Counted from the first letter of the stretch, positions 14,212 to 54,600 are shown. The stretch: 64,000 bases of DNA from Planctomycetota bacterium (GCA_025055595.1 JANWWU010000066.1:11147-75146), one strand, 5' to 3'. The notes: generated by a model from the letters alone, not told the origin. Numbers and translations: made by a program.

Positions 14212-15011
14212 CGCCTGCTCCCCATCTCGGCGGCGCGGAAGACGCGCGCGAAGATCAGCTCGAGGTCCTGGCGCGTCAGGCCGCGGGTGAACTGCCCGCG
14301 GTCGGCCATGCTGATCTGCCCGGTCTCCTCGGAGACGATGATCGCCAGCGCATCGGTGTCCTCGGAGATGCCGATGCCGGCGCGGTGGCGGGTCCCGGAC
14401 AGCGACTTGTAGGCGATGTTGTTGGTCAGCGGCAGGATGACGCCGGCGGCGGCGATGCGGCCGCCACGGATGATCACCGCCCCGTCGTGCAGCGGCGCGT
14501 CCTTCCAGAAGAGGCTGACCAGGCTCTTGGCGGTCAGCTCGCAGTCGAGCGGGCTGGTCGTGATGTAGGCGTCGAGGCGGTCGTTGCGCTCGATGACGAT
14601 CAGCGCGCCGATCCGCCGCTCGGCCATGAACATCAGCGCCTCGACGAGCGGGCCGACGAGGTGCATGCCGTGCCCGCCGCCGCCCTGCGGCAGCAGGCCG
14701 CCGAGCCGCGACAGCAGGCGGCGCAGCTCGGGCTGGAAGACGACGATCAGGATGATCGCGCTGAAGCCGACCAGGGTCTGCAGCAGCCAGGCGATCGCGT
14801 GCAGCTCGAGCCAGCGCGACAGCAGCCAGATGCCGACGACGCCGAGCAGCAGCAAGCTGATGCCGCCGATCTTGCCGCCGGCCGCCGTCCGCTCGAGCGC
14901 GCGCAGCAGGGCGTAGACCGCGCCCCAGAGGATCGCGAGCTCGGCGCCGGCGCGGACGAAGAACGGCCAGTCGGCGAGCGGCGGCAGCCAGTCCCACGGG
15001 AGGAAGCTCAT
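14208..15011 (-). CDS. cdaA: diadenylate cyclase CdaA (DisA_N/DAC domain, 3 N-terminal TM helices)
   Basis: M 267 codons before the end of track ORF 14208..15869. DAC-domain motifs …[15 protein letters not shown]…[15 protein letters not shown]… are present. 'cat' at 15009-15011. ATGA overlap with folP. Confidence 0.9.
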
Positions 15012-22859: not shown

Positions 22860-23936
22860 TTGCCGCTCCCCGTGGTCAGCGCTGCCCAGCCCCAACTTGC
22901 CAGACCCCGCTCCCCGGCGCGGCGCGCGCGCTGGGCGCCGATCCTTGCGGCCTTGCGCGACCAGCCCTGGCGCGAGCTGCTTGCAGCCAGCGAGCTGCTC
23001 GAGGCGCTCGCCGCCCAGGGCCTGGAGCTCAGCGAGCGCACGCTGCGCCTGCACTGCGCGGAGCTCGGCGCCGCGGGCCTGATCGAGCGCGTCGGCAAGC
23101 GCGGCTACCGCCTGACGCCCGCCGGCCTCGAGGCGGCGCGCGCGCTCGCCGTCCAGCGCCGGCTCGGCACGGTCGCGGCGCGGATGGAGAGCATGGTCTG
23201 CCAGCTGACCTTCGATCCCCGCCGCCGGCAGGGCCTGGCCTCGATCAATGCCTGCGTCGTCCGCCGCTCGCTGCTGCCGACCCTGCTCGCCGACCTCGAG
23301 GCGGTGTACGAGAGCGGGCTGGCGGTCGGCGACCGCGTGCTGATCGCCGAGCCCGGCAGCGAGGTGCTCGGGCGACGGGTCCCGGAGACCTGCGTCGGGA
23401 TCGGCACCGTCTGCTCGCTGACCATCGCCGCCACCCTGCTCGCCGGCGGGGTGCCGACGCAGCTGGTCGGCGGGGCCCTGCTCGGCATCGTCGAGCGCCG
23501 CCCCGCGCATCTGCTCGAGCTCGTCCGCTACGACGCCAGCTCGCTCTCGCCCAACGAGCTGTTCATCCGCGCTCGCCTGACCAGCGTGATCGACGCCGCG
23601 CGCTGCGGCGAGGGCCGGATCACCGCCAGCCTGCGCGAGCTGCCGATGTCGGCCCTGCCGCGGCTCGACGAGGCGCTCGCCGCCTGCCGCGAGGCCGGTT
23701 TGCACGGCGTGCTCGCCGTCGGCAAGCCCGGGCAGACCCTGCTCAACGCCCCGCTCGGCGAAGGCCGGGTCGGCCTGCTGCTCGCCACCGGCCTCAATCC
23801 GCTGGCCGGCCTCTGGGAGCGGCACCTCGTCTCCGCCAGCGATCCCGACACCGCCAGCCCGATGGTCGGGCCGGCGGAGTGGCAGTCGCTGATCCCGGTG
23901 CGCGAGCTGCGCGCCCGCCTCGCCCGTTTCCTGTAG
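22860..23936 (+). CDS. NrpR-like nitrogen repressor-family regulator (winged-helix + DUF128/NRD-like domain), tentative
   Basis: Track ORF. The N-terminal segment [39 protein letters not shown] resembles the NrpR wHTH (…ISERTVRYHL…ERVGxRGxxIT…). It lies immediately upstream of gltBD, with an 8-nt gap. The family call is from memory of NrpR sequences and was not searched. Confidence 0.45.
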
Positions 23937-23943
23937 GAAGTCC

Positions 23944-28494
<4,551 letters not shown>

Positions 28495-28515
28495 ACCCTC
28501 TGCCAAGGAAGCGCC

Positions 28516-29997
<1,482 letters not shown>

Positions 29998-30903
29998 TCA
30001 CGGGCCGCGGCGCGGGCCGAGCCGGACGAGTTCGTCGCGCCAGGCCGCGGCCTGGCCCTCGCCGATCTGATAGAGCCAGCGCCGGGCGTCGGCGCCGTAG
30101 CCGGCGGTCGGCGCCAGCCAGCGGTGGCGCGCGCACCACCAGCGGTTGAACAGGTGCATGTGCAGCTCGCGCGCGTACTTGGCGATGCAGGAAGCGAGCG
30201 CGGGCAGCGGCCAGCGGCGGTCGGCGCCGACCGCGATCAGCACCTCGCTGGCCGCGACGCGGTAGCGGCGGGCGGCGCGCGCGGCGTCGACGAGCTGCAC
30301 CGCCGCTCCCGGCCAGATGCCGGACAGCCAGGGGCCGTAGTCGAGGCGCCCGCCGAGACGATCGATGACGATGCGTGTCGGTCGTCGCGGATCGGGCGCG
30401 AGCTCGCCGAGCACGGCGCCGACGGCGGCGAGCAGGCAGGCCGCGCGGTTGCGGCCGGCGGCCCGCGCCTCATTGAGCGCGCGCGGGTGCAGGATGCGCG
30501 CGCGCAGGCCGGCCGGGCTCAGGCCCGGCAGCCGCCAGGACGGCAGCGCGCGCGCCGCCAGCGGCACGCGCAGCTGCTCGGCGCCCTGCTGCCAGGGCGC
30601 CGAGCGCTGGTCGGCGGACTCGCCGCACAGCGCCAGCACATCGGCCGCGGTGTCGGGCTGGAAGCCGCTGAGCCAGGCGAGCGCCGGCAGGGCGACGCGC
30701 TCGAGCGGCGCGAGGTCGCCGGGACGATGCACGGCCTTGCTGTCGGCGACCCCGCAGCCGGCGAGCGCGGCGAGCGCCGCCTCGTCGTCGGCCGCGACCG
30801 CGACCGCGCAGACCACCAGCGGACCGAGCAGCGGACCGTAGCCGGCTTCGTCGACGCCGAGCTGCCGCTCAGCGCTTGGGCTCGGGGGGCAGGACGAAGT
30901 CAT
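29998..30903 (-). CDS. RNase H type-2 (RNase HII)-like protein, divergent
   Basis: Track ORF. N-terminal GVDEAGYGPLLGPLVV and …ADSK… correspond to RNase HII motifs (DEAGRGxLxGPVV, DSK), but with GRG changed to GYG and a long non-homologous C-terminus. Confidence 0.45.
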   Translation of the reverse strand: MTSSCPPSPSAERQLGVDEAGYGPLLGPLVVCAVAVAADDEAALAALAGCGVADSKAVHRPGDLAPLERVALPALAWLSGFQPDTAADVLALCGESADQRSAPWQQGAEQLRVPLAARALPSWRLPGLSPAGLRARILHPRALNEARAAGRNRAACLLAAVGAVLGELAPDPRRPTRIVIDRLGGRLDYGPWLSGIWPGAAVQLVDAARAARRYRVAASEVLIAVGADRRWPLPALASCIAKYARELHMHLFNRWWCARHRWLAPTAGYGADARRWLYQIGEGQAAAWRDELVRLGPRRGP

Positions 30904-31990
30904 CGGCGGCGAGCAGGCCCTGCACCCAGGAGACGAAGGCCGCGAAGGGGTAGGCGAGGCAGGCGATCGCCGTCTCCTCGGTCACCGGCAGCGGCGGGAA
31001 GCGGTCGCGCGCCAGCCGCGACAGCCGCTCGCGCATGCGCAGGCCGGCGAAGGCCTCGCGGTAGGGCGCCTGCTGCGCCGCGACCGCGACGCGGGCGTAG
31101 ATCTCGTGCAGCTGGATCAGCTTCTGCCACAGGCGGGCGATGCGAAAGCGCTTCTGCTCCGGGGTCTGGCCCTGCAGGAAGAGAAAGAGCTGCGGGGTCT
31201 CCTCCATCGCCGCCAGCCAGTGGTAGAGCGTCGGGTAGGCTTGGCCCTCCCGCGGATCGAACTCGTCGACCGCCATGTAGACGAGGAACACCTGCTTGTA
31301 GAAGCGCGCGCGGACGCGCTCGGCGAGCAGCGCCGCGAGCGCGGCCGCGCGCTCGCTCTCCGGCAGCGCCGCCAGCGAGCGCTCGGCCTCCGCGCCGAGG
31401 CGCGGGATGGCGACGGCATCGTGCCAGGTCGCATCGGCCTGCCGCTGGCGCAGGCGCTCGCGCAGCTCCTGGCAGCGCGCGGCGAAGCTCGCCGTCCACA
31501 CCAGGCTCTCGGCGAGCCGCGGCTCGCCGAAGGGCGGCAGCGGCCGCGCCAGCCGCGCCACGGCCTGGCAGGGCAGGGCGCGCAGCGCGTCGATGCCCAG
31601 CGTTTCGCCGAGGCGCTCCTGCAGCTGGCGGCGCAGCGTGCGGTACACCGCGATCGCATGGAGCTGCGCCTCGGCGACGCCGAGCCCGCTCTCGTCCCGC
31701 AGCAGGCACAGCTCGTCGATCAGCGCGGCGCGCACCGCGGCCTCGCGGTAGTGCTCGTCCTCGGCCAAGGCCGCAAGCAGCCGCTGCTGCAGGCGGCGCG
31801 CGCCCTCGTCCTCGAGCTCCGCAAGCAGCGCCGCCAGCCGGCCCTGAGCCGGCTGCTCGGCGAGCAGGCCGTCGCCGATCCCGCCCTCCGCCTCCTCGAT
31901 CAGCGCGCGATGGCGCGCGATCACGATCGGCCGCCGCGCCTCGGCGATGATCGCGGCATCGCTCGCTGCCTCGTCCGCTGCCTCGGCCAT
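30869..31990 (-). CDS. hypothetical protein
   Basis: Track ORF with balanced composition. Overlaps the downstream RNase HII-like gene by 35 nt on the same strand. No family recognised. Confidence 0.5.
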   Translation of the reverse strand: MAEAADEAASDAAIIAEARRPIVIARHRALIEEAEGGIGDGLLAEQPAQGRLAALLAELEDEGARRLQQRLLAALAEDEHYREAAVRAALIDELCLLRDESGLGVAEAQLHAIAVYRTLRRQLQERLGETLGIDALRALPCQAVARLARPLPPFGEPRLAESLVWTASFAARCQELRERLRQRQADATWHDAVAIPRLGAEAERSLAALPESERAAALAALLAERVRARFYKQVFLVYMAVDEFDPREGQAYPTLYHWLAAMEETPQLFLFLQGQTPEQKRFRIARLWQKLIQLHEIYARVAVAAQQAPYREAFAGLRMRERLSRLARDRFPPLPVTEETAIACLAYPFAAFVSWVQGLLAADDFVLPPEPKR

Positions 31991-32290: not shown

Positions 32291-32399
32291 GACGACCTCC
32301 GTCGGGCGTCGTATCGCTGCCGCCGCAGGGCCAAAGGCTTTTCGCGTGCGGCGCACGCGGTCTTCCCTTTCGGTCAGGCGCGCCAACCTGCCGCAGTCC

Positions 32400-33695
32400 A
32401 TGAGCCGCATCGACCTCGAGCCGGTCAAGGGCACGCGCGACTTCTATCCCGAGGACCTGCGCTTCCGCAGCTGGCTGTTCGGGCACATGCGCGCCGTCGC
32501 CACCGCCTTCGGCTACGAGGAGTACGACGCCTGCGTCCTCGAGCACGCAGCGCTCTACATCCGCAAGGCCGGCGACGAGGTGACGCGGCAGCTCTACGAG
32601 TTCATGGACAAGGGCGGGCGCCATGTCGCGCTGCGCCCGGAGCTGACGCCGTCGCTGGCGCGGATGGTGATGGCGCGCGGCGCCGCGCTCGCCCTGCCGC
32701 TGCGCTGGTTCGCCATTCCGCAGTGCTTCCGCTACGAAGAGACGCAGCGCGGGCGCAAGCGCGAGCACTTCCAGTGGAACATGGATGTCATCGGGCTGGC
32801 GAGCGTCGCCGCCGAGGCCGAGCTGATGGCGGCCCAAGCCGAGCTGTGCCGCCGCGTCGGCCTGCGCCTCGACGGCCCCGAGCCCGAGGCGCTGTGGCGG
32901 GTCTCCGACCGCCGCCTGCTCGCCGACGCCCTCGCCGGGCTCGGGCTCGACGAGGAGCGCGCCGCCGCGGTCTGCGTGCTGATCGACAAGCGCGGCAAGA
33001 TCGGCGACGAGGAGCTGCTCGCCGCGCTCGGCGAGCTCGGCGTCGACCGCGAGGCGTCGCGGCGGCTGTTCGCGCTGCTCGAGGTCCGCGGCCTCGAGCA
33101 GCTCGGCGCGCTGCTGCCGGCCGAGCATCCCGGGCTGCGCGCGCTGCGCGAGCTGCTGGCGCTGGCCGAGAGCCACGGCATCGCCCACCTCATCCGCATC
33201 GACCTCTCGGTGGTCCGCGGGCTCTCCTACTACACCGGCATCGTCTGGGAGGTGTTCGCCGCCGCCGGCACCTTCCGCCGCGCGATCGCCGGCGGCGGGC
33301 GCTACGACCGCCTGTGCGCGCAGCTCGGCGGCGAGGCGGTGCCGATGGCCGGCTTCGGCTTCGGCGACATCCCGATCCAGGAGGTGCTGGCCGAGCTCGG
33401 GCGCCTGCCGCCGCTGCCGCGCACGCTCGACGCCGTCGTCTATCCGATGGACGGCGCGCTGATCCCGCTCGCCAACCGCCTGGCGGCGCGCCTGCGCGCC
33501 CAGGGGCAGAGCGTCGCCGTCGACTACACGCTGCGGCGCTTCAAGCACGTCGTCCAGCGCGCCGAGAGCGACGGCGCGCAGGCGCTCTACATCCTCGGCA
33601 GCGACGAGGTCGCGCGCGGCGTCTGCAAGCGGCGCCGCCTCGGCGGCGCGCGCCAGGAGGACGACATCCCGCTGGCCGCCTTCGGCATCGCTTAG
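32400..33695 (+). CDS. hisS: histidine--tRNA ligase
   Basis: ATG at 32400 within track ORF 32148..33695. Class-II motifs KGTRDFYPED, FRYEETQRGRKREHFQ and GGGRYDRL, plus a C-terminal anticodon-binding domain. Confidence 0.9.
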   Translation: MSRIDLEPVKGTRDFYPEDLRFRSWLFGHMRAVATAFGYEEYDACVLEHAALYIRKAGDEVTRQLYEFMDKGGRHVALRPELTPSLARMVMARGAALALPLRWFAIPQCFRYEETQRGRKREHFQWNMDVIGLASVAAEAELMAAQAELCRRVGLRLDGPEPEALWRVSDRRLLADALAGLGLDEERAAAVCVLIDKRGKIGDEELLAALGELGVDREASRRLFALLEVRGLEQLGALLPAEHPGLRALRELLALAESHGIAHLIRIDLSVVRGLSYYTGIVWEVFAAAGTFRRAIAGGGRYDRLCAQLGGEAVPMAGFGFGDIPIQEVLAELGRLPPLPRTLDAVVYPMDGALIPLANRLAARLRAQGQSVAVDYTLRRFKHVVQRAESDGAQALYILGSDEVARGVCKRRRLGGARQEDDIPLAAFGIA

Positions 33696-33746
33696 CAGGC
33701 TTCGGGCGCCGTTGTCCTGCTCTTCCGCGCCAGTACCGTCACGAGC

Positions 33747-35318
33747 ATGGCGCCCTCCGACACGCCGCGCGGAACCCGTGCGCTGCCGCCGCTCTCCGGC
33801 CGGCAGCTGGCGGCGCTGGTCCGCGAGCGCCTGCAGCAGGATCCGGCGTGGAGATCGTTCACCGTCGATCAGCGCTGGGTCTGCCCGTGGTGCCTGTCGG
33901 TGATCGGCCGCCGACCGCAGCGCAGCTGGGAGGACTCGATCGCCGCGCACCTCGAGGTGTGCCGGCACTATGCCGGCGGCAGCCGGCCGCCGCTGGCGGC
34001 CGCCGTCGTGCAAGCGCAGATCGCCTTCGAGAACCTCGTGCACCGCGCCAAGAGCGACCCGGCATGGCAGGTCTACGCGGACGGCGTGTGGATCTGCCCG
34101 GCCTGTTTGCAGCGCATCCCGCAGGTGCGGGCGATCGGCGGCAGCCCCTCGCTGCTGACCTACCGCGAGATGGTCCAGCACCTGCAGCGCTGCGCCGCCT
34201 ACGCGCGCGGCACCCTGCATCCCGTCGCGGCGGTGCGCGCGGTGATCGCGCCCCCGGCCCCGCCGCCGGTCACCCCCGCCACCGGCGCCCGCAGCCTCCC
34301 GCCGCCGGCAGCCGGCGGCGCCGCCACGCCGCTCGGCGGCGCCCGCGTCCTGCCCGCGGCCGGCCCCGCCGTGGAGCCGACCGCGGCCACCCCGCTCGGC
34401 GGCGTGCGCATCGTGCTGCCGCCCGCGGCCAGCGAGCCGCCGGTCGCCACCCCGCTCGGCACCCGCGCCCTGCCGCCGCTGCCGCCCGCGCCGAGTCCGC
34501 TGCCAGCGCCGCTGGCGCCGGAGCTCGCCTGGATGGACGAGGCCGATCGCCAGAGCGCGCGCAGCGAGGCCAGCGCTCCCCCGCCCCCCGAGGAACTGCG
34601 CCGCGCCCGCGATCTGCAGCAGCGCCTGCTCGCCGAGGCTCCGGAGATCCCCGGCTTCGCCTTCGCGACGCGCTACGAGCCTTGCGACCATGTCAGCGGC
34701 GACTTCTTCTGCTTCGTCCGCCTGCCGCACGGCGACATCGGCTTCGCGATCGGCGATGTCAGCGGCCACGGCATGCAGGCCGCGCTCGTCATGTCGATGG
34801 CCAAGAAGACGCTGGAGATCTACGCCGCGCAGGGCGGCGGACCGCGCCAGGTCCTCGCCCAGGTCAACGACGCGCTCGCCAGCGACCTCGGCGGCACGAT
34901 GTTCGTCACCGTCACCTACGCCGTCCTGTCGCCGGCGCGGCGGACGATCCGCTGGGTGCGCGCCGGGCACCCGCCGACCCTGGTGTGCAACCATCGCCTC
35001 GGCACGCAGGGCGAGATCAAGCCCGCAGGCATGGTGCTCGGGATGAAGACCGGGGCGCTGTTTTTCGACAGCCTGGAGGAATACGAGATCGATGTCGTGC
35101 CCGGCGACACCTTCCTGCTCTATACCGACGGCATCACCGAGACCACCAACCCCCAGGGCGAGGAGTTCGGCGAGGGGCGGCTCGCCGAGATCTTCGTCCG
35201 CCATGCCAGCGCCGGGGTCGAGTCCCTGCTGACGCAGATCATCGATCGCGTGCGGCATTTCCGCGGCTCGCGACCGGTCGCCGACGATCTCACGCTGCTC
35301 GCGCTCGCTGTGCCATGA
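33747..35318 (+). CDS. SpoIIE/RsbU-type (PP2C-fold) phosphatase with a novel N-terminal region: two tandem CxxC…HLxxC Zn-ribbon-like repeats plus low-complexity ATPLGG-type peptide repeats
   Basis: Track ORF. The C-terminal domain has the RsbU-like …GDVSGHGMQAALVMSMAKK…LLYTDGITE… pattern. N-terminal repeats RWVCPWCLSV…HLEVCRHYAG and VWICPACLQR…HLQRCAAYARG are visible directly. The stop overlaps the next ATG (ATGA). Confidence 0.75.
   Translation: MAPSDTPRGTRALPPLSGRQLAALVRERLQQDPAWRSFTVDQRWVCPWCLSVIGRRPQRSWEDSIAAHLEVCRHYAGGSRPPLAAAVVQAQIAFENLVHRAKSDPAWQVYADGVWICPACLQRIPQVRAIGGSPSLLTYREMVQHLQRCAAYARGTLHPVAAVRAVIAPPAPPPVTPATGARSLPPPAAGGAATPLGGARVLPAAGPAVEPTAATPLGGVRIVLPPAASEPPVATPLGTRALPPLPPAPSPLPAPLAPELAWMDEADRQSARSEASAPPPPEELRRARDLQQRLLAEAPEIPGFAFATRYEPCDHVSGDFFCFVRLPHGDIGFAIGDVSGHGMQAALVMSMAKKTLEIYAAQGGGPRQVLAQVNDALASDLGGTMFVTVTYAVLSPARRTIRWVRAGHPPTLVCNHRLGTQGEIKPAGMVLGMKTGALFFDSLEEYEIDVVPGDTFLLYTDGITETTNPQGEEFGEGRLAEIFVRHASAGVESLLTQIIDRVRHFRGSRPVADDLTLLALAVP
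34323..34490 (+). repeat. imperfect ~60-nt tandem DNA repeats (x3) encoding ATPLGG(A/V)R(V/I)LP… peptide repeats inside the RsbU-like gene
   Basis: The unit gccac(g/c)ccgctcggc(ggc)… recurs three times in-frame. Coordinates are approximate. Confidence 0.5.
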
Positions 35319-36052
35319 GACTGCAGGCCGCCGCCCTCACCCATCGCGGACGCATCCGCAACCACAACGAAGACGCCGCCTACGCCGATGCCTGGGACCG
35401 GCTGGCGGTGGTCTGCGACGGGATGGGCGGGCACGCTGGCGGACACATCGCTTCCCAGCTCGCGGTCGAGACGATCGTCGCCAGCCTCTCGTCGCTGCGC
35501 GGCGCGGCCTGGGCCGACGAGGAGCGCGTGGTCAAGGCCGTGCAGGAGGCGGTGTTCGCGGCCAACGACCGCATCCTCGCCCGCGCGCGGGTCGATGCGA
35601 CGCTGTCCGACATGGGGACGACGATCGTCCTCGGCGCCTTCATGCCCGACCGCGTGGTCACGGCCTACGTCGGCGACAGCCGGATCTATCGGATCAGCGG
35701 CCGCGAGATCGCCCAGGTCTCCGAGGACCACAGCCTGGTCGCCGAGCGCATCCGCGCCGGCCTGCTCGATCCCGACAGCGAGGAGGCCCGCCTGCTCTCC
35801 AACATCGTCACCCGCGCGCTCGGCATGGAGCAGATCACCGTCGACATGGCGGTCGAGGACCTCGCGCCCGGCGACACCTACCTGCTGTGCACCGACGGCC
35901 TGCACGACCTCGTCCGCGAGGCCGAGATGCTGCGCATCGTCCAGGGCGCGAGCACGCTCGAGCGCGCCTGCGTCGAGCTCGTCGAGCTCGCCCTGCATCG
36001 CGGCGGGCACGACAATGTCACCGTCGCCCTCGTGCGCGCGCTCGCGGAGTGA
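35315..36052 (+). CDS. PP2C-family Ser/Thr protein phosphatase (Stp-like)
   Basis: ATG at 35315 inside track ORF 31106..36052; the upstream ~1400 codons of that ORF are junk. Motifs …THRGRIRNHNED…VCDGMGGHAGG…DSRIY…TDGL…GGHDNVT…. Confidence 0.85.
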   Translation: MRLQAAALTHRGRIRNHNEDAAYADAWDRLAVVCDGMGGHAGGHIASQLAVETIVASLSSLRGAAWADEERVVKAVQEAVFAANDRILARARVDATLSDMGTTIVLGAFMPDRVVTAYVGDSRIYRISGREIAQVSEDHSLVAERIRAGLLDPDSEEARLLSNIVTRALGMEQITVDMAVEDLAPGDTYLLCTDGLHDLVREAEMLRIVQGASTLERACVELVELALHRGGHDNVTVALVRALAE

Positions 36053-36054
36053 GC

Positions 36055-36615
36055 ATGGCCCCCTTCGATCTCGCCGCCGACAACAGCGCCCTGCTGCTGA
36101 TCGATGTCCAGGAGCGCTTCCTGCCCGCGATCCCCGAGATCGCCGGCGAGCGCCCGGTCGGACGCTGCTGCCGGCTGCTGCTCGAGAGCGCGCGCGACCT
36201 CGCGGTGCCGATCCTCGTCAGCGAGCAGTACCCGCAGGGCCTGGGACCGACGCTCGCGCACCTGCAGGAGGCGCTGGCCGGCGCGCCGCGCCATCCGAAG
36301 ACCGCCTTCAGCTGCTGCCGCGACGCCGGCCTGGCGCGCGCGATCGCCGCCCTGCATCGCTCCTGGTGGGTGCTCGCCGGCATCGAGGCTCATGTCTGCG
36401 TGCTCGCCACCGCCGCCGATCTCCTCGCGCAGGGCCGACGCGTCGTCATCGCCGCCGACGCCGTCGCCAGCCGCGACGCTCGCCACGCCGCCTGGGCGCT
36501 GCAGGCGGCGCGCGACCTCGGCGCCCTGGCGTTGCCGGCCGAGACGGTGATCTTCGCCTGGCTCGGCGACGCCGCGCATCCCGCCTTCAAGCGGGTGGCG
36601 GCGCGGCTGCGCTGA
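36055..36615 (+). CDS. isochorismatase-family hydrolase
   Basis: M at residue 57 of track ORF 35887..36615 (MAPFDLAADNSALLLIDVQERF…). Starts 3 nt after the PP2C stop. Confidence 0.8.
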   Translation: MAPFDLAADNSALLLIDVQERFLPAIPEIAGERPVGRCCRLLLESARDLAVPILVSEQYPQGLGPTLAHLQEALAGAPRHPKTAFSCCRDAGLARAIAALHRSWWVLAGIEAHVCVLATAADLLAQGRRVVIAADAVASRDARHAAWALQAARDLGALALPAETVIFAWLGDAAHPAFKRVAARLR

Positions 36616-46206: not shown

Positions 46207-49200
46207 ATGGGCTTCACTGGCCAGCTCGGGTCCGTCAATCTCGCGGACATCTTCCAGACCCTGCAGGTCAACCGCCAGACCGGGACGATGACCGTCAGCA
46301 GCCCGAGCCAGGAGACGGTGCGGCTATGGTTCGCCGAGGGGATGATCGTGCTCTGCTCGGCGCCGACCGTCGAGGGCCGGCCCTTCCTGCTCCATATCCT
46401 GCTGCGCCGCGGGCTGGCGCCGGCCGAGGCGCTCGACGAGGCGCTGCGCCGCCAGCGGCAGACCGGGCAGGCGCTGCGCGATGTCCTGCTCAACACCGGC
46501 CTGATCGCCGAACCGGCGCTCGACGAGCTGGCGGTGTGGTGCGTCGAGGAGATCGTCTGCCCGATCTTCGAGTGGCAGGCCGGGCAGTTCAGCTTCGCCG
46601 AGGGCGACCCGCCGCCCGAGCTCAGCGGTCCGGAGGCGATCGCGATCCCCGCCGGCCTGCCGACGACCTCGCTGGTCATGGAGGCGACGCGGCGCCTGGA
46701 CGAGTGGCAGCGCATCCGCGCCGTGATCCCCGACGCCAACGCGCTGTACATCGTCGACAACGAGGGCCGCCAGAACCTGCGCAACGTGCAGACCGACCCC
46801 GAGCTGCTCAAGGTCCTGCGCTACCTCGACGGCCGGCACCTGCTCGACGGCATCGCCCAGGCGACCGGCTTGTCGCGCTTCGATGTCCACGCGATCGCCG
46901 CCCAGCTCGTCATCGCCGGCGTCGCGCGCGCGCGCAGCCTCGCCGAGATCGTCGACGACGCCCTGCAGCTCAAGCAGCGCGGCGAGCTGCCGGCGGCGCA
47001 GGCCCTGCTCGAGATCGCGCTGCGCGCCGCGCCGACCGCCGATGTGCAACGGCCGCTGGCCGAGATCTACGAGAAGCTCGGGCAGATCCCGCGCGCCGTC
47101 GAGCTGTACCTCGCGCTGCTGCAGCAGGCCCAGGACGCCGGCGACCTCGCGCAGGCCCGCGACTACCTCGACCTCCTCGTCCGGCTCTCGCCCGACGACC
47201 CCGACCTGCACTTCGAGCGCGCGCAGATCCTCGCCGAGCTCGGCAACCCCGAGCTCGCGACCCAGGGCTTCTGCACCGCGGCCCAGGGCTTCCTCGCGCT
47301 CAAGGCGGTCGCCAAGGCGATCGATGCCTGCCATCGCGCGAAGAACCTGCTGCCGCGCCAGCCCGATCCGCACCGCTACCTGGCGCGCGCCTACCTGCTC
47401 GATGGCAACACCGAGACCGCGGTCGTCGAGTACAAGGCGCTGTGGCACGCGCTGCTGACCGAGCAGTCGCCGCGCAAGGCGCTCGAGGCGCTGACGCGGA
47501 TCCTCGATAGCGACTGCAAGTACGCCGCGGTCAAGGAGCAGGTGCTGGCCTACGCACGCAACTCCGAGGCGGTGCGCACCAGCCGCGCGATCCGCCTGCT
47601 CGTCTACGCCGCGATCGGCGTCGTCCTCGGCTGCGGCCTGGTCGCCGGCTGGTGGTTCTACGAGCGCCACCTGCTGCGCGAGGAAGGCCTGCGCCGCCTG
47701 ACCGAGCTCGAGGCGGCGCTGCCGCACCAGCTGCAGGAGCTGCGGCACATCGCGCTGCGCCAGCAGCTGGCCGAGATCCGCGGGCACTACGGGGTGCGGG
47801 TGCCGGAGGTCGAGCTGCGCGCCAGCGCCCTCGAAGCCCAGGTGGCCGAAGACTTCGAACTGCGCGCCAGCGAAGAGCTCAAGCGCTGCGAGGCCCTGCG
47901 CGCCGCCGGCAAGTACCAGGAGGCGCTGCGCGCGCTCGACGACCTGGAGCGGACCTTCACCGCGACCCGCGCCGCCGCCGCCGTCCCGGAGGCGCGCACC
48001 CGCGTGCGCGCGGAAGAGATCGCGACCCAGGTCTACGCGCGCGTCGAGAGCGCCAAGCAGCGCTGGACCGCGCTCGACTGGGACGGGGCCCTCGCCGAGC
48101 TGACGCCGGTCCTCGCGCGCAGCGACCTGCCGGCGGCCCTGCGTCAGGAGCTGACCGAACTCCAGGTCGAGTGGCAGGCGGCGCTGCGCAGCGCGCGCCG
48201 GCTCTCCGAGCGCGCCGCCGCGATCCAGGCCCAGGGCGACCGCCGGACCGCGCTCGAGGCCTGGCGGCGCGCCGCCGATCCCGCCGCCGAGGGCGAGAGC
48301 GACCGCGCCGCCGCGCTCAGCCGGCTGACCGTGCTCGAACGCGACATCGCCGAGGGCCGGGCGCGCCAGGCCCAGGGCGCGGCGGCGCGCGGCGACCCCG
48401 TCGCCTGCTTCGCCGCGATCGACGAGCTGCAGGCGCTCGCCGGCCAGGCCCGCGGTCCGGGGCCCGGCGAGGTCCTGCAGGCGCTGACCCTGCCCTTCAC
48501 CGTGTTCCTCGACAGCCACCACACGACGCTGCAGATCGCGCGCCGCGATGGCGCCGCCGAGCAGCTGCGCGCGCCCCCCGGCCATCAGGGCCCCTGGCGC
48601 CAGGTGCTCGCCTGGCGGCTGAGCGAGCGTTGGACGCTGACCGCGGCGCGGCGCGGCTTCCTGTCGCAGTCGCTGTCGGTGTCGGCGGAGGCGCGGCGCG
48701 TCTCCGCCGACTTCACGCTGGTGCGCGGTCCGAAGTGGCGCTGCGAGCTCAGCGCGCGGCCGGTGTCGGCGCCGCGGCTGGTGCCGGGGGCGGTGCTCGT
48801 CGGCACCAACCGCACGACGCTGGAGTTCGTCGATCCCGCCCAGGGCACCCTGCGCACGCTGTCGTTCGGCGACGCCGTCGCCGAGCTGATCGACAGCCTC
48901 GCGATCCTCGGCCAGCACGGCTTCCTCGTCGTCGAGCAGCGCGTGCACGCCGTCGACCTCGCGGTGCGCGCCCGGGCCTGGGCCTGGCCGCCGCCGCACG
49001 AGAGCGGCCCGCGCCTGCTCGGCCGCCTGGCGGCCCTCGAGCATCCGCTGATCCCCAGCGTGCGCCTGGTGCTGGCGCCGGCTCCCGGCGAGCTGCTCGT
49101 CCTCGCGGTCGACGGCGAGCGCGTCGTCCGCTATCCCGGCCTGCGCTTGAGCGGCGAAGTCAGCGCCGCGCCGCTGGTCGATGCCCGCGACCCGCTGCGC

Positions 49201-49803
49201 CCCCTGGTCTGGCTGCCGCTCGGCGCGGCGCTGCTCGTCATCGACTGCAGCACGGTGACCGAACGGAACCCGCCGCGGCTGCTCGCCTCGCTGACCCTGA
49301 GCGGCGAGCTGCTGACCTCCCCGGTGCCGGCGCTCGTCGAGCAGGTCCCGGCGATCCTCGTTGCCGACAGCCGCGGCGTCGTCTCGGCGATCGATGCCCG
49401 GCCGGCGGCCGGCGGCCTGCTGCGCACGCTCGGCTCATGGACCCTGGAGAGCGCGCCGACCAGCGAGCCGATCCTCGCCGGCGACCGCACGGTGGCGGTG
49501 CTCGCCCTGCCCGAGGGGCGCCTCGCCTGCCTCGACCTCGCCCGCCCCGGCAGCCTGCGCTGGCGGGCCCCGGCGCGCCCGCTGAGCGCCGGCATCGTCG
49601 GCGCGCCGGCGATCGGCCAGCTCGGCGCCTATGCCGTCGACAGCGCTGGGATGCTGCACGCCTTCGCGCTCGTCGACGGCGCGCTGCGCTGGTCGGCGGA
49701 CCTCGGCGGCACCCCGGTCGGCGGGGTGCTGGCCAGCGACGGCGCCCTCTACATCCCGACCCGCGCCGGCCAGCTCGTCTGCTTCGAGGAAGGCGACGAG
49801 TGA
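46207..49803 (+). CDS. large multidomain protein: N-terminal DUF4388/PATAN-like domain, TPR-like helical region, single TM helix, long coiled-coil, C-terminal PQQ-like beta-propeller
   Basis: Track ORF, 1198 aa. The N-terminus MGFTGQLGSVNLADIFQTLQVNRQTGTMTV…VRLWFAEGMIV matches the DUF4388 signature. TM helix LLVYAAIGVVLGCGLVAGWWF. The C-terminus has repeated …G…L.A.D..TG..LW… blades. Confidence 0.8.
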   Translation: MGFTGQLGSVNLADIFQTLQVNRQTGTMTVSSPSQETVRLWFAEGMIVLCSAPTVEGRPFLLHILLRRGLAPAEALDEALRRQRQTGQALRDVLLNTGLIAEPALDELAVWCVEEIVCPIFEWQAGQFSFAEGDPPPELSGPEAIAIPAGLPTTSLVMEATRRLDEWQRIRAVIPDANALYIVDNEGRQNLRNVQTDPELLKVLRYLDGRHLLDGIAQATGLSRFDVHAIAAQLVIAGVARARSLAEIVDDALQLKQRGELPAAQALLEIALRAAPTADVQRPLAEIYEKLGQIPRAVELYLALLQQAQDAGDLAQARDYLDLLVRLSPDDPDLHFERAQILAELGNPELATQGFCTAAQGFLALKAVAKAIDACHRAKNLLPRQPDPHRYLARAYLLDGNTETAVVEYKALWHALLTEQSPRKALEALTRILDSDCKYAAVKEQVLAYARNSEAVRTSRAIRLLVYAAIGVVLGCGLVAGWWFYERHLLREEGLRRLTELEAALPHQLQELRHIALRQQLAEIRGHYGVRVPEVELRASALEAQVAEDFELRASEELKRCEALRAAGKYQEALRALDDLERTFTATRAAAAVPEARTRVRAEEIATQVYARVESAKQRWTALDWDGALAELTPVLARSDLPAALRQELTELQVEWQAALRSARRLSERAAAIQAQGDRRTALEAWRRAADPAAEGESDRAAALSRLTVLERDIAEGRARQAQGAAARGDPVACFAAIDELQALAGQARGPGPGEVLQALTLPFTVFLDSHHTTLQIARRDGAAEQLRAPPGHQGPWRQVLAWRLSERWTLTAARRGFLSQSLSVSAEARRVSADFTLVRGPKWRCELSARPVSAPRLVPGAVLVGTNRTTLEFVDPAQGTLRTLSFGDAVAELIDSLAILGQHGFLVVEQRVHAVDLAVRARAWAWPPPHESGPRLLGRLAALEHPLIPSVRLVLAPAPGELLVLAVDGERVVRYPGLRLSGEVSAAPLVDARDPLRPLVWLPLGAALLVIDCSTVTERNPPRLLASLTLSGELLTSPVPALVEQVPAILVADSRGVVSAIDARPAAGGLLRTLGSWTLESAPTSEPILAGDRTVAVLALPEGRLACLDLARPGSLRWRAPARPLSAGIVGAPAIGQLGAYAVDSAGMLHAFALVDGALRWSADLGGTPVGGVLASDGALYIPTRAGQLVCFEEGDE

Positions 49804-49847
49804 ACGGCAACGGCGGCGGCCGCGGCGCGTATGATCTTCGGGGACCC

Positions 49848-50453
49848 ATGCCGCAGCGCGCCTTCACCCTCGTCGAGCTGCTCGCGGTCATCGGCATCAT
49901 CGTCATCCTGATGGGCCTGGCGCTCGGCGGCGTGTCGCTGGCGCGCCGCAGCGCGCAGCGCGCGCGCACGGTCGGCGCGATCGCCGCCGTCGCCGCCGCC
50001 ATCGACCAGTACCGCAACCTCAACAACTGCTGGCCGGAGCACTTCACCGTCAGCGATGCCGTCGCCAACCATCCCCAGGCGCCGGAGGAGCTGCGCGCGC
50101 GCCGCTACGACCAGGTCTATCAGCGGGTCTTCGCGCCCGGCGGGCAGCTGCGGCCGGCCAGCGAGATCCCGCCCGAAGACTGGCGGGCGGTCAATGCCGC
50201 CCTCGCCTGGCAGCTCGCCGACCTGGCGCGCGAGCACCAGCGGCGCGGCCTCTTCCTCGACGCCTGGGAGGAGCCGCTGCGCTACCGCCCGGCGCGCTGG
50301 TACCCCTGGCAGAGCGGGGCGCGCGCGCGCATCGACAGCGACCAGCCGCCGCAGCCCGACAGCTACCAGCTGTGGTCGGCCGGTCCCGACCGCCGCGACG
50401 CCGAGGACCCCGGCGAGGGCGGCGACGACATCCCGAACTGGAACAGGCGCTGA
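49848..50453 (+). CDS. prepilin-type N-terminal cleavage/methylation domain protein (pseudopilin)
   Basis: ATG at 49848 inside track ORF 47652..50453. N-terminus MPQRAFTLVELLAVIGIIVILMGLALGG is the class-III signal/pilin motif with Glu+5. Confidence 0.75.
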   Translation: MPQRAFTLVELLAVIGIIVILMGLALGGVSLARRSAQRARTVGAIAAVAAAIDQYRNLNNCWPEHFTVSDAVANHPQAPEELRARRYDQVYQRVFAPGGQLRPASEIPPEDWRAVNAALAWQLADLAREHQRRGLFLDAWEEPLRYRPARWYPWQSGARARIDSDQPPQPDSYQLWSAGPDRRDAEDPGEGGDDIPNWNRR

Positions 50454-50460
50454 TGCCGGC

Positions 50461-51678
50461 ATGCGCCGCGGCTTCACCCTCACCGAACTGCTGGTCGTCA
50501 TCGGCATCGCCCTGCTGCTGATGGGCCTCTCGGTCGCCAGCGTGGTCCGCGGACCCTCGCTCCACCGGATGCTCGCCGCCGAGCAGCTGCTCGCCGACTG
50601 CATCCGCCAGGCCCGCCACCAGGCGCGCAGCAGCGGGCAGCCGGTGCTGCTCGTGCTCAGCCCCGAGGACGGCGCGATCAGCGGCCTGATCCGCCGGCTG
50701 CTGTGGACCCGCGAGGAGGGCTGGCCGCCGGCCCACGACGCCTTCTGGCCGGGACGCAGCGGCAGCGGCCTGCTGTTGCCCGACGCCTTCGCCGAGGATC
50801 CGGCGGCCGCAGCCAGCAGCGATGGCCTGCTCGAGGGTCCCGACCGCCTGGCGCGCGGGCTGCCGCCCGAGGCCCAGCGCGAGCTGCCGCGCCTGCTGCT
50901 GAGCGTCGCCGTGCGCCCGCCGCGCGCCGACCGCGGCCCTCTCGCGCTGCCGCTGGTCCTGGTCGGCGAGGAGAGCGAATACGGCGAGGAAAGCAGCGAC
51001 CTCGCGCGCAGCCAGCTCGGGCTGCTGCTGCTGCGCAGCGACGCCGACGCGCAGAGCGGCGCCGCGCCGCGCACCGTGCTGCCGGCCTGGGAGGTCCTCG
51101 GCTGGATCGTCGACGGCAGCGGCGAGCGGCACGAGATCTCCTCGCTCGCTCACGCCACCGAAAGCCGCGGGCGGACGCTGACCCTGGTGCACAGCGACGG
51201 CACCGCGGGCGCGATCAGCGGCTACGACCACGACGGGGCGATCGCCGGCGAGCGCTGGCTCGAGCTCGGCCTGCTCGTCGAGCCCGGGCGCCTGACGCTG
51301 TACCGCGATGGCCGGGAGATCGCGCAGCGCGCGCTGAGCGTAACCAGCCTGCGCTCGGCGCCCGGCGCGCGCGAACGCGTCGTCGTCGGCCGCATCCGCA
51401 TCCCGGGCTGGGATGCGGCGCGCTTCGCCCCGCCGGCCGGCGTCGTCTGGCTGATCGACAGCGTGCGCCTCGAGCGCCTCGGCACGGCGCCGGCGGCGCT
51501 GCTGCCTGCGGGCGTGCAGGTCGCCGCGCCGGCGCGCATCCGCTGCCATCCCGATGGCCGCGTCGAGTGCGAGGGCGAGCTCGCGCTGCGCAGCGACAGC
51601 GGGGAGAGCGCGATCGTCACGGTCTCGGGCAGCGGGCTGGTGACGAGCGCCACCCGCCTGCGTGCGGAGGACCGATGA
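50461..51678 (+). CDS. prepilin-type N-terminal cleavage/methylation domain protein (long pseudopilin, 405 aa)
   Basis: ATG at 50461 inside track ORF 50056..51678. N-terminus MRRGFTLTELLVVIGIALLLMGLSVA (G|FTLTE). The stop overlaps the next ATG (ATGA). Confidence 0.7.
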   Translation: MRRGFTLTELLVVIGIALLLMGLSVASVVRGPSLHRMLAAEQLLADCIRQARHQARSSGQPVLLVLSPEDGAISGLIRRLLWTREEGWPPAHDAFWPGRSGSGLLLPDAFAEDPAAAASSDGLLEGPDRLARGLPPEAQRELPRLLLSVAVRPPRADRGPLALPLVLVGEESEYGEESSDLARSQLGLLLLRSDADAQSGAAPRTVLPAWEVLGWIVDGSGERHEISSLAHATESRGRTLTLVHSDGTAGAISGYDHDGAIAGERWLELGLLVEPGRLTLYRDGREIAQRALSVTSLRSAPGARERVVVGRIRIPGWDAARFAPPAGVVWLIDSVRLERLGTAPAALLPAGVQVAAPARIRCHPDGRVECEGELALRSDSGESAIVTVSGSGLVTSATRLRAEDR

Positions 51679-54600
51679 GGCGCGGCGCCGCCCTCGTCCT
51701 CGCCCTGGCGATCCTCGCCAGCCTGCTGTTCCTCGCCCTGCCCTTCGTCTTCAGCCAGACGGCGAGCGTCGGCGGGGCGCGCAGCGCGGCCTGGGACCAC
51801 GAGGCGCGGCGCATCCTCGCGGCGAGCGAGCACGAGGCGGTGGCGGCGAGCATCAGCGCGCTCGCCGCCCTCGCCGCGGGCGAAGCGACGAACTCCCTGC
51901 CGCACGACCTCGCGGAGCGCGCCGGCTACAGCGTCGTCGTCGAGCACCCGGGGCGCGCCGTCCTCAGCAACCTGCCGGCCTCGGGGTCGACGCAGCGCGG
52001 GCTCGCGATCGAGGACGAATACGGCAAGCTCGATGTCAACAGCCTCGGCCCCGAGGCCTGGGGGCGCCTGTTGGCGGACCTCGACATCCCCGATCCGACG
52101 ACTTGGCGCTGGGTGTGGAGCGGGGGCCAGCCCAACGCGCAGCCGGCGCTGCTGCAGCACGGCAGCTGGCAGCCGCTGCCCTACGGCCGGCTGGCGATCG
52201 CCCTCGCCCGCCACCGCCTGCGCCTGCCCAGCGGCCGCTACCACGACCTCGCCGAACTGCTCGCCGCCGACCCCCGCCGCGCGCAGCCGGCGCAGGCGCC
52301 CTTCGGCGCCGTCGAATACGGCTCTGGCGCGCGCGACCAGGAGAGCTTCGAGCCGCTGATCAGCCGCCTGATCCCCGACTGGGAGCAGCAGCTCTTCGGC
52401 GCCGGCGGCCTGCTCGACCGCCAGGGACCCTACCGCGCTCACCCGCTGACCCGCGTCGAGTGGGAGCGCCTGCTGCCGCACCTGACCGTGCACGCCCTCG
52501 GCCAGGGGCGGGCGGGCTGCGCCGACCTCGGCACGGTCATCGCGCTGAGCCAGGTGCCGAACCACAACGACCACAGCATGATCAGCGATCTCGTCGCCGC
52601 TCCCGCGGCCCTCAACCGTCTGGTCCCCGCCTTCGCCTGGCTGGTCGGCGCGCGCCGCGACGGCCGCCTGTACCGCGGCCGCCGCCACCTCGATGGGCTG
52701 ACGGTCGAGTCTGTCGCCTCCCCGCTCGCCGATCCCGGGCTGCCGCTGGCCGTCGAGCTGCCGGCCTGGGTCAACGCCAACACGATGACCGAGCCCGTCG
52801 CGGCAGCGCTCAACGCCCAGCTGCCAAAGCAGCCGCTGGCGGCGCTCGCCGCCCTGCCGCCCGACAGCTGGTGGCCCTTCGCGCTTGCGAACACCGGCCA
52901 GCCCTCGACCTGGCGGCCGCCGCTCGCCGTCCTCAGCCTCGGCGCGATCCGCATCGAGGCGGCGACGACGGTGATGGCGGCGGGGCAGATCACCGCCCAG
53001 CGCCAGCGCCGCAGCGTGTGGCAGGCCCTGCCGGCGAGCGTCGAACGGCGCTGGCGCAGCCAGGCCGAGCTCGAGGCGCTGTGCCGCCTCGGCCTGCCCT
53101 CGGGCAGCGTCAGCGGCCCCCAGCCGCTGCTGCGGCGCAGCGTGCCCGGCGAGCTGCTGGCGGGCGACGGTTGGCTGGAGCCCGCGCCGCTCGCGTCCTT
53201 CGCCGACAACCCCGCGCTGTCGCTGCCGCAGCGCGCCAACCTGCCCGCCGACGAGGGGCTGGTGCCGGCCGGCTACCAGCGCGCCTTCTCCGCGCCGCTG
53301 GCCAGCCTCTGCCTGCTGCGCAGCGGCAGCGACGAGTTCGCCCCCCAACAGCTGAGCCTCCGCTTCGCCCTCGACGGCGAGGCCAGCGCCGCCGCCGTCC
53401 TGTTCGCGGCGCGAACCGGCGACGGCAGCGCGCCGCGCGGCCGCTGGCGGCTGCGTTGGGAAGGCGCGGGCGCCGAGGCGGAGCGCTGGCAGGGGCAGCT
53501 GGTCCTCGAGGTCGCTGGCCTCGCCCTGCCCTGGGAGCGGGACCACCCCTGGACGATGGCTGCCGACGACCCGCGCACCGCCGACATCGACGAGCGCTGC
53601 CTGCCCGGCCCGCTCTCCCTCGCCCCGCGCCGCCCCGGGCCGCCGCACGAGGAGTTCCGCTACCGGGCGGAGCTCGCCCGCGGCACGATCCACCACCTGC
53701 AGCTGTGGTACGCCGGGCCGCAGCCCGGGCAGTATGGGCTGGCGGTCGACGGCATCGTCGGCCGCGACGCGATCAGCGGCCGGGACTTCGCGCGTTTCGG
53801 CGATCACTATCCCTTCCCCGCCTTGCGCCTGGCCGAGGACATCCCGGCCAGCGACCCCCTCCGCGAAGGCGGGGCCGCGCTGAGCCGGCCCGAGCGCATC
53901 CGTCTGCTCGCCCCGCCGGGCCTGCGCCTCGCCGAGCTGCTGCCGGCGCGCGGCCTGATCCGCATCGACGACGAGTACTTCAGCTACGAGGGCATCGACG
54001 GCGACGCGCTGCGCGGCGTCCGCCGCGGGCGGCGCCAGAACTGCAACCCGACCGCGGTGATCCGCACCCTGGTCCGCCCCGGCCCGCCGGCGGAGTACCG
54101 CGACGATCCCGACCACGCCAAGCGCTGGCCGGCGACCCAGGCCCACCGCGCCGGCGCCCTGGTGCTGCCCGGCGACTGGCTGACGCGCATCGAGGCCGGC
54201 GTCGACGCCGACCGCCGCTGGCTGCGCGGCGCGACGACGCTCGCCGACCCCCTGCAGGCCGAGGCCGTGACCGAGGAGATCGACATCCGCTCCTGGCCGG
54301 TGGTCAATGGCCAGCGCCTCTATCCGAGCGAGATCCCGGTCCGCGGCCCCTGGCCGGAGCGCGGCATCCTGCGCTTCGAGGTCAATGTCAGCGAGAACAA
54401 GGCGGCCTTCGTCCGCGAGGGCGAGCGCCTGCGCCTCGACTGGCGGCCGCCGATCGCCTCGGGAACGCCCGAGGGCGCGGCTCCCCTGATGCCGCCGGCC
54501 TTCACGAGCCGCGCCAGCGTCACCATCCGCCTGATCAGCCTGCGCGTCGCCGACGACGCCGACCTGACGCACACGCCGACCACCGAGCGCCTGCGCTTCG

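Follow-up and report, generated by a model that had tools for sequence, protein, structure and literature searches.

What kind of protein is encoded where a SpoIIE-type phosphatase domain is preceded by a tandem array of Cys/His modules, and what might such an array do for a phosphatase? The question is raised by a gene, here called gene A, in a 64,000-nucleotide (nt) stretch of a Planctomycetota metagenome-assembled genome (MAG) (GCA_025055595.1, JANWWU010000066.1:11147-75146). This whole stretch is referred to as the window; coordinates are 1-based along it, and its G+C content is approximately 75%. We found that gene A opens a conserved cassette of translationally coupled genes, in which it is followed by a Stp/PstP-type PP2C phosphatase gene (gene B) and a gene for an isochorismatase-family hydrolase. 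Its product is predicted to be soluble and catalytically competent and belongs to the SpoIIE/RsbU class of PPM Ser/Thr phosphatases, and it carries N-terminal modules that, according to structural models, are ββα-type Cys2-His-Cys fingers. A first-pass annotation made from the DNA sequence alone had described the N terminus as novel. This description is valid for the domain, which is uncharacterized and belongs to no curated family, but not for the protein, which is already present in NCBI (100% identity to P0002, i.e., MCS6970608.1, [quoted passage not shown]) and whose family is widespread in Planctomycetota MAGs.

Duplicated Cys/His modules and a SpoIIE-type phosphatase domain

The two modules of gene A (approximately 65 amino acids [aa] each) are homologous, with 36% identity in a two-sequence BLASTP alignment (E = 5e-12), and the duplication of a CxxC + H + C unit noted in the first-pass annotation was thus confirmed. 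In module 1, WVCPWCL (residues 44 to 50) is paired with HLEVCRHYA (68 to 76), and C46, C49, H68, and C72 are the candidate ligands. In module 2, WICPACL (115 to 121) is paired with HLQRCAAYA (145 to 153), giving C117, C120, H145, and C149 as the corresponding candidates. Both modules also share a DPAW motif located upstream of the knuckle, which was absent from the first description. The complete pattern consists of a helix, DPAW, 6 to 8 residues, W-x-C-P-x-C-L, 18 or 24 residues, and H-L-x-x-C-x-x-Y-A-x-G. A profile hidden Markov model of the module matched modules 1 and 2 of gene A with E values of 7.5e-23 and 4.5e-25, respectively.

The assignment of the phosphatase domain to the RsbU/SpoIIE type, also proposed in the first-pass annotation, was upheld by a match of residues 328 to 522 to PF07228 (SpoIIE), which covered profile positions 2 to 191 of 192 (E = 1.5e-50; 172.2 bits versus a cutoff of 25). 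Residue conservation was evaluated using an alignment of 101 sequences of gene A relatives, in which the metal-ligand Asp residues D319, D337, D461, D513, and D514 (GDxx, GDVSGHG, TDG, and DD motifs) were invariant. The PPM αββα fold was modeled with high confidence (predicted local distance difference test score [pLDDT] of >90 over residues 290 to 523). Foldseek matched it to RssB, Rv1364c, SiaA, SpoIIE, and RsbX with a probability of 1.00, and the E values for Pseudomonas aeruginosa RssB, the RsbU domain of Rv1364c, SiaA, and SpoIIE ranged from 1e-15 to 1e-11. The domain is acidic in the window protein, with an isoelectric point (pI) of 5.1.

Predicted fold and conservation of the N-terminal domain

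AlphaFold2 models of full-length gene A and of its N-terminal domain alone were generated with the family alignment. The full-length model had a mean pLDDT of 84.9 and a predicted template modeling score (pTM) of 0.55. Its pLDDT exceeded 90 over residues 20 to 170 as well as over the phosphatase domain, and it was below 50, with no predicted secondary structure, over linker residues 180 to 257. The model of the N-terminal domain alone had a pLDDT of 95.0 and a pTM of 0.84, with both modules inside one confidently modeled unit. The pLDDT of module 1 in the models was approximately 96 to 98. Each modeled module comprises an N-terminal helix, a short β-hairpin with the CPxC knuckle, and a helix bearing H-x3-C (residues 61 to 71 and 136 to 148). 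On the basis of these models, we classify the module as a Cys2-His-Cys finger of the ββα type, with long loops and an extra N-terminal helix. The zinc ribbon suggested by the first-pass annotation was ruled out, because a ribbon would need a second CxxC hairpin; in the models, the β-hairpin bears the CPxC pair alone, and the second pair is H-x3-C on an α-helix. Profiles of ribbon families gave sub-threshold matches only, and these were confined to the WxCPxC knuckle.

Structure prediction, one of the follow-ups proposed with the first-pass annotation, thus yielded a confident fold, and this fold had no counterpart in PDB: a Foldseek search of PDB with the N-terminal domain model gave no match with an E value of <2 (best E = 2.3). 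Sequence and profile searches of PDB with the N-terminal domain and the module profile returned nothing significant, only PHD, RING, and NZF-type matches at the WxCPxC knuckle (E ≥ 0.015), and no family in Pfam or NCBIfam exceeded its threshold on the N terminus of gene A. In these searches, the module thus gave no above-threshold match to a known common domain, the kind of match that the first-pass annotation had named as evidence against its reading. The most consistent weak match was to a plant family, DUF1677 (PF07911), which was matched by the N-terminal domains of 23 of 29 relatives at model positions of approximately 28 to 80. The window protein scored 13.6 bits and its N-terminal domain alone scored 18.5 bits, both below the cutoff of 25. 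Some three-module relatives scored 29 to 35 bits, with no individually significant stretch in any relative. Because the literature on DUF1677 describes no function for that family, the match explains nothing about gene A.

In the 101-sequence alignment, H68, C72, W115, P118, and C149 were the invariant residues of the N-terminal domain. Conservation of at least 90% was found for W35, W44, C46, P47, C49, L69, and G78 in module 1 and for E95, W107, G113, L121, H145, L146, and G155 in module 2. The full C-C-H-C ligand set was present in 586 of 692 module instances, and the first module was of the CCHC form in nearly all family members. In the commonest degenerate form (SSHC; n = 43), both knuckle Cys residues were gone together, and this form occurred only in the middle modules of three-module proteins. 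Across the 692 modules, the candidate ligand positions are kept together and lost together, as would be expected of a metal site with four ligands, and each finger presumably binds Zn2+. Of 29 relatives, 28 had a basic N-terminal domain; the median net charge was +4, and the median pI was 8.9.

The linker and the WMD motif

The ATPLGG(A/V)R repeats noted in the first-pass annotation are present in the linker of gene A as ATPLGGAR (residues 193 to 200) and ATPLGGVR (214 to 221), followed by a last copy that reads ATPLGTR (233 to 239). Weaker copies of the form TPxG(x)RxLPP occur at residues 175 to 187 and at the extreme N terminus (5 to 16); the N-terminal tails of relatives are Gly/Arg rich and have the form G.RG.SPL. 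The RALPPLP segment of the linker happens to fit the class I SH3-ligand consensus. A recent DNA-level tandem repeat was considered as the source of the TPLGG repeats and rejected, since TRF revealed short GC-rich microrepeats only. Across the family (191 linkers), the linker had a mean length of 140 residues and was rich in Pro, Ala, Thr, and Ser, and RTP, TPL, and TP.G were enriched 4- to 6-fold compared with shuffled sequences. Thr-Pro motifs were nevertheless ruled out as a family-wide trait, since 57 of the 191 linkers contained none.

A second element, L-x-W-M-D-x-A-(D/E), is strongly conserved approximately 20 to 25 residues ahead of the α0 helix. WMD was enriched 85-fold in family linkers, and W262 and M263 were conserved in at least 90% of relatives. 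Short helices at residues 258 to 275 (with low-to-medium pLDDT) and 282 to 294 are the only ones predicted between the disordered stretch and the PPM domain.

A family widespread in Planctomycetota MAGs

When the query was limited to the N-terminal 168 aa, a word-indexed search detected a single relative, the partial protein P0001, and gave the misleading impression of an orphan gene; full-length and exhaustive profile searches revealed the family. Contig look-ups by exact sequence for the window protein and for P0002 gave no match. The search for the module in other proteins that the first-pass annotation had suggested was carried out with HMMER against 1.84 billion representative proteins, exhaustively and with clustering at 50% identity; the query was a 69-position profile generated from 58 diverse module copies. 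It identified 278 proteins (clusters) at an E value of ≤1e-3, including 101 at ≤1e-30, with 2 to approximately 7 modules each. With full-length gene A as the query, we recovered the identical protein and >100 further clusters (90% identity) with the same architecture. Among GTDB species representatives, seven full-length orthologues were found, all in Planctomycetota MAGs with G+C contents of 54 to 72%, and each had two or three modules. All named sources of family members were Planctomycetota MAGs. Searches of the literature on DUF1677 and on Planctomycetes with SpoIIE turned up nothing on this phosphatase family.

The output domains were surveyed in the best 150 of the 278 hits, which included 131 new representatives. 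The same PPM domain was present in 104 of these 131, and the remaining new representatives were judged to be contig-end fragments because they were short or ended inside the Pro-rich linker. No output domain other than PPM was seen with the module among the best 150 hits, and ten unusually long family members all end in SpoIIE. The exception within this set was P0250 (611 aa), a low-GC protein with three modules and a "DWMTDD" sequence that has neither a PPM domain nor any Pfam match; it represents either a family variant that lacks the phosphatase or a gene with a frameshift. The partial relative P0001 (L001, 4090 to 4949) is orthologous to gene A; it carries two modules together with TPMGG repeats and is located downstream of hisS. 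It runs without a stop codon into a fragment of DctP (a TRAP-transporter binding protein) at the contig end and is probably an assembly chimera.

Gene B and the conserved cassette

The TGA stop codon of gene A (35316 to 35318) overlaps the ATG start codon of gene B (35315 to 35317) in an ATGA sequence at 35315 to 35318, in agreement with the coupling to a Stp-type PP2C described in the first-pass annotation. Gene B matched the Pfam families PP2C_2 and PP2C (PF13672; 72.4 bits versus a cutoff of 24) and scored 219.9 bits on the NCBIfam model Stp1_PP2C_phos (NF033484), just below the equivalog cutoff of 230. Its nearest relatives with solved structures are tPphA, PstP, PppA, and Stp1 (E = 1e-37 to 1e-29; 1e-37 to 1e-33 for tPphA and PstP), and the motifs RxxNED, DGMGGH, GDSR, TDG, and DN are all present. 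Because the catalytic motifs and Asp residues are retained, both the PPM domain of gene A and gene B look active.

The order of the two genes was evaluated in the 11 related loci with enough sequence (L002 to L008, L013, L014, L016, and L017; L015 represents the same contig as L004), and in each of them gene A was followed immediately by gene B. The first-pass annotation had considered a unit of two phosphatases to be atypical; the pairing is real, but it is a family-wide arrangement and not a peculiarity of this genome. The 4-nt overlap between the two genes was seen in the window and in L002, L003, and L013. The isochorismatase-family gene followed gene B in 8 of the 11 loci (L002, L003, L005, L008, L013, L014, L016, and L017) and was displaced by approximately 5 kb in L015. 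In the window, this gene has an alternative ATG at 36055, and its only NCBIfam match is a weak, generic YcaC-like one. Only in the closest clade (L001, L002, L003, L013, and L014) did hisS precede gene A; it was not upstream in L015 to L017 and is therefore probably outside the functional unit. A Hanks-type kinase gene lies right after the cassette in L017, and a STAS gene lies 4 kb downstream of it in L016. Promoter/terminator and Rfam scans of the operon gave nothing informative.

In the L013 relative, approximately 7 kb upstream of the cassette (230 to 3185), a [FeFe]-hydrogenase-like/PAS sensor gene is overlapped by the start of another SpoIIE-type phosphatase gene. It is the second instance, in these organisms, in which a phosphatase of this class is coupled to an unusual sensor.

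Proposed function and its alternatives

We lean toward the view that gene A encodes a phosphatase of the partner-switching type controlled by a zinc-dependent binding or sensing N-terminal domain, a proposal that we consider somewhat probable. Each finger would bind one Zn2+, and the array would serve as a binding/sensing module for a protein partner or another ligand. It might recruit the tethered phosphatase to its target, or it might occlude the acidic PPM domain and release it, the WMD helix being a possible transducer. The protein dephosphorylated by the PPM domain would be a phospho-Ser/Thr protein whose gene lies elsewhere; a STAS-type anti-sigma antagonist, the default substrate for the class, is the most probable one. 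Cotranslated gene B would remove Thr phosphorylation introduced by a Hanks-type kinase within the pathway of gene A, and the Thr-Pro-rich linker of gene A may be among its substrates. This proposal is supported by the homology of the two modules, the joint conservation of the candidate ligands, the confident models, the complete PPM domain, and the constant order of genes A and B, as well as by the Hanks-type kinase gene of L017 and the STAS gene of L016. In addition, N-terminal regulatory domains of PPM phosphatases act through the region just ahead of the catalytic domain (PMC12143880).

Several observations weigh against this proposal. In the Bradshaw model of the general-stress-response phosphatases, a continuous α-helical coiled-coil linker connects the N-terminal domain to the PPM domain (PMC12143880). 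The long disordered tether of gene A departs from this signal-transducing linker of its characterized relatives (PMC12143880), so any coupling mechanism is a guess. Linker phosphorylation cannot be a universal feature, given the 57 family linkers that lack Thr-Pro. A Pfam scan of all 53 candidate genes in the window detected no Pkinase, STAS, RsbW-type ATPase, FHA, anti-sigma, or sigma factor genes, in accord with the first-pass remark that no partner is adjacent.

The least improbable of the alternatives, although still an unlikely one, is a redox (thiol) switch, in which oxidation would free the zinc, unfold the finger array, and toggle the tethered phosphatase in response to oxidative stress. 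Bacterial zinc-thiolate switches are well established, with RsrA/ChrR-type zinc-binding anti-sigma (ZAS) factors and Hsp33 as oxidant-labile analogues. Given this precedent, the three Cys residues and one His residue conserved at each candidate site would be suitable for such a switch, and the operon of the window lies amid genes for a ferredoxin, a chlorite-dismutase/HemQ-like protein, and a SUF system. However, these redox-related neighbors are not conserved in related loci, and 43 relatives tolerate the loss of the knuckle Cys pair in the middle module. In addition, structural fingers typically show the ligand order CxxC…HxxxC on a ββα scaffold, which is not the HxxxCxxC arrangement of ZAS domains, and no zf-HC2 match was obtained.

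We also doubt, to a slightly greater degree, that the array is a structural scaffold with no signal input of its own, in which zinc is purely structural, the fingers only oligomerize or stabilize the protein, much as the N-terminal domain of RsbU dimerizes RsbU, and regulation comes from the linker or the partner phosphatase. Characterized PPM phosphatases are activated by dimerization driven by their N-terminal domains (PMC12143880), and degenerate modules without the Cys pair persist in the family. A disordered tether of 90 to 250 residues would nevertheless be a poor relay of dimer geometry. Moreover, the DPAW and WMD surface motifs are strongly conserved, which suggests specific interactions.

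Less likely again is a nucleic acid tether, i.e., basic tandem fingers that bind DNA or RNA and place the phosphatase on the nucleoid, a transcript, or a ribonucleoprotein. Tandem arrays are typical of nucleic-acid-binding finger proteins. The basic character of the N-terminal domain in all but one of the 29 relatives, the arrays of 2 to approximately 7 fingers, and the upstream hisS gene of the closest clade would all be in keeping with such a role. However, the charge is modest, Trp, Pro, Leu, Gly, and Glu, not basic residues, predominate among the conserved nonligand positions, and the modules were modeled as a single unit (pTM, 0.84) and not as beads on a string. More distant members do not retain the linkage to hisS, and no nucleic-acid-binding finger family exceeded its threshold.

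That gene A is a misassembled or frameshifted fusion, a possibility that the first-pass annotation had raised, or a GC-rich spurious open reading frame (ORF) with chance Cys/His patterns is exceedingly improbable and effectively refuted: although the relative P0001 looks chimeric, with its DctP fragment at the contig end, the full-length architecture recurs in independent MAGs (NCBI, JGI, ENA, and Logan) at 33 to 77% identity and 54 to 75% G+C, codon-position GC supports one coding frame across 32357 to 35319 (+), and the fold of the N-terminal domain is confidently predicted.

The reading that we prefer, in which the phosphatase is controlled by a domain that binds or senses in a zinc-dependent manner, can be extended to a bolder scheme, which we regard as doubtful. 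In this scheme, the finger array would be an unrecognized class of bacterial cytoplasmic sensor that acts through a disordered tether and WMD, the cassette would join partner-switching and Hanks-kinase signaling, and gene B would reset the linker. If this were true, the sensor could be for zinc, redox, or a specific macromolecule, WMD would be a short linear motif that replaces the coiled-coil linker, and the SpoIIE-type and Stp-type phosphatases would form a hard-wired junction of phospho-STAS and Hanks-kinase signaling in Planctomycetota.

RsbU/SpoIIE-class PPM phosphatases constitute the input step of partner-switching stress pathways, and how their N-terminal domains signal to the catalytic switch is the main question about them. 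The family described here supplies an undescribed, probably metal-binding input domain confined to uncultured Planctomycetota, and its disordered tether offers a counterexample by which the generality of the coiled-coil transduction model can be tested. The conserved two-phosphatase operon hints at cross talk between phospho-signaling systems that are normally treated apart. For this domain, which spans 278 clusters and is weakly linked to plant DUF1677, a defined boundary, the ligand pattern, and a confidently predicted model are now available for use in annotation; the practical value will be modest until a substrate or signal is identified.

Coordinates and other genes in the window

TABLE 1 Features of the gene A cassette and its upstream neighbor, in window coordinates
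Feature	Position	Strand	Description
Gene A	33747-35318	+	ORF, 523 aa; predicted Cys2-His-Cys-finger/SpoIIE-type PPM phosphatase
N-terminal tail copy of TPxG(x)RxLPP	33759..33794	+	Residues 5-16, DTPRGTRALPPL; read from sequence
Module 1	33813..34001	+	Residues 23-85; modeled helix, DPAW, W-x-CPWC knuckle, helix with H68-x3-C72
Module 2	34029..34232	+	Residues 95-162; plan of module 1; CPAC and H145-x3-C149 separated by a 24-residue loop
Pro/Ala/Thr-rich linker, predicted disordered	34257..34517	+	Residues 171-257; four TPxG(x)RxLPP copies, including RALPPLP (239-245)
Conserved LxWMDxA(D/E) helix (predicted)	34518..34571	+	Residues 258-275; WMD at 262-264
α0 helix and PPM (SpoIIE/RsbU-type) phosphatase domain	34590..35315	+	Residues 282-523; PF07228 match
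hisS (histidyl-tRNA synthetase)	32400..33695	+	Pfam tRNA-synt_His and HGTP_anticodon; 51 nt before gene A
Gene B	35315..36052	+	245 aa; Stp1/PstP/tPphA-type PP2C phosphatase
Isochorismatase-family hydrolase	36049..36615	+	PF00857, E = 1e-27; GTG start overlaps gene B stop (GTGA)

Other genes in the window are recorded here as separate observations. A gene on the minus strand (30869 to 31990) encodes a 373-aa protein that belongs to no Pfam or NCBIfam family; it is flanked by an RNase HII-like gene, of which only the first approximately 44 profile positions match, and by a ferredoxin gene just upstream of hisS. An NrpR-like regulator gene (22860 to 23936, +; PF01995, E = 1.4e-55, plus HTH_12) is located directly upstream of gltB/gltD (23944 to 29997). 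NrpR is known as an archaeal nitrogen repressor, and its occurrence in a Planctomycetota MAG is therefore worth noting. A diadenylate cyclase gene (DAC, E = 3.7e-39) and a following gene for a 326-aa protein without a Pfam match (13231 to 15011, −), beside folP, presumably form a unit for cyclic di-AMP synthesis. The window also encodes a 980-aa protein without a Pfam family (8750 to 11692, −) and a 1,198-aa protein (46207 to 49803, +) with a DUF4388 domain at its N terminus, TPR repeats, and a PQQ_2/BamB-like propeller at its C terminus. At 49800 to 56510 (+), two prepilin-type (N_methyl) genes are followed by an ORF of 1,647 aa without any Pfam match.

Comparison with known systems

In its catalytic domain class, the presence of an N-terminal regulatory region, and the α0 helix upstream of the catalytic domain, gene A resembles RsbU, RsbP, RssB, SiaA, and Rv1364c. 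It differs from these proteins in the nature of the regulatory region, which is a four-helix bundle or a PAS, REC, HAMP, or transmembrane domain in the RsbU class and a Cys2-His-Cys finger array in gene A, and in the linker, which is a crossing coiled coil in that class and a long disordered Pro-rich tether with the WMD motif in gene A. RsbU_N, the RsbT-binding helical dimerization domain, gave no Pfam or NCBIfam match in gene A, which is accordingly not RsbU proper. Unlike RsbU systems, gene A has no rsbT, rsbV, rsbW, STAS, or stressosome genes nearby and instead adjoins hisS, the PP2C gene, and the isochorismatase-family gene. Gene B corresponds to the group of Stp1, PstP, PrpC, and tPphA, aligning from end to end with tPphA, PstP, PppA, and Stp1. 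Phosphatases of this class are associated with Hanks-type kinases, whereas gene B adjoins no Hanks-type kinase or FHA gene in the window and is translationally coupled to a SpoIIE-class phosphatase gene.

For the N-terminal domain, two kinds of zinc-binding proteins can be compared. The ZAS domains of RsrA and ChrR likewise place a zinc Cys/His site within a bacterial stress-signaling protein, although the zinc of gene A is predicted. Their ligand order is HxxxCxxC, in contrast to the CxxC…HxxxC of gene A; their fold is different, and gene A has no anti-sigma domain. A ZAS-type anti-sigma domain was ruled out by this motif order and by the absence of a zf-HC2 match. The closer likeness is to the ββα CCHC/C2H2 fingers (UBZ4-type CCHC, Di19, BED, and ZFAND2), a comparison that draws in part on weak, sub-threshold profile matches to zf-Di19, zf-BED, ZFAND2, and TRAF-type fingers. 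These fingers share the C-x2-C…H-x3-C pattern with the module, and in them, as in the models of the module, a β-hairpin knuckle carries the first ligand pair and a helix carries the second. The spacer between the Cys pair and the His residue is approximately 12 residues in the ββα fingers and 18 and 24 residues in the modules of gene A. Relative to these fingers, the gene A module has an additional N-terminal helix and the DPAW motif, extends to approximately 65 aa, and is bacterial and fused to a phosphatase.

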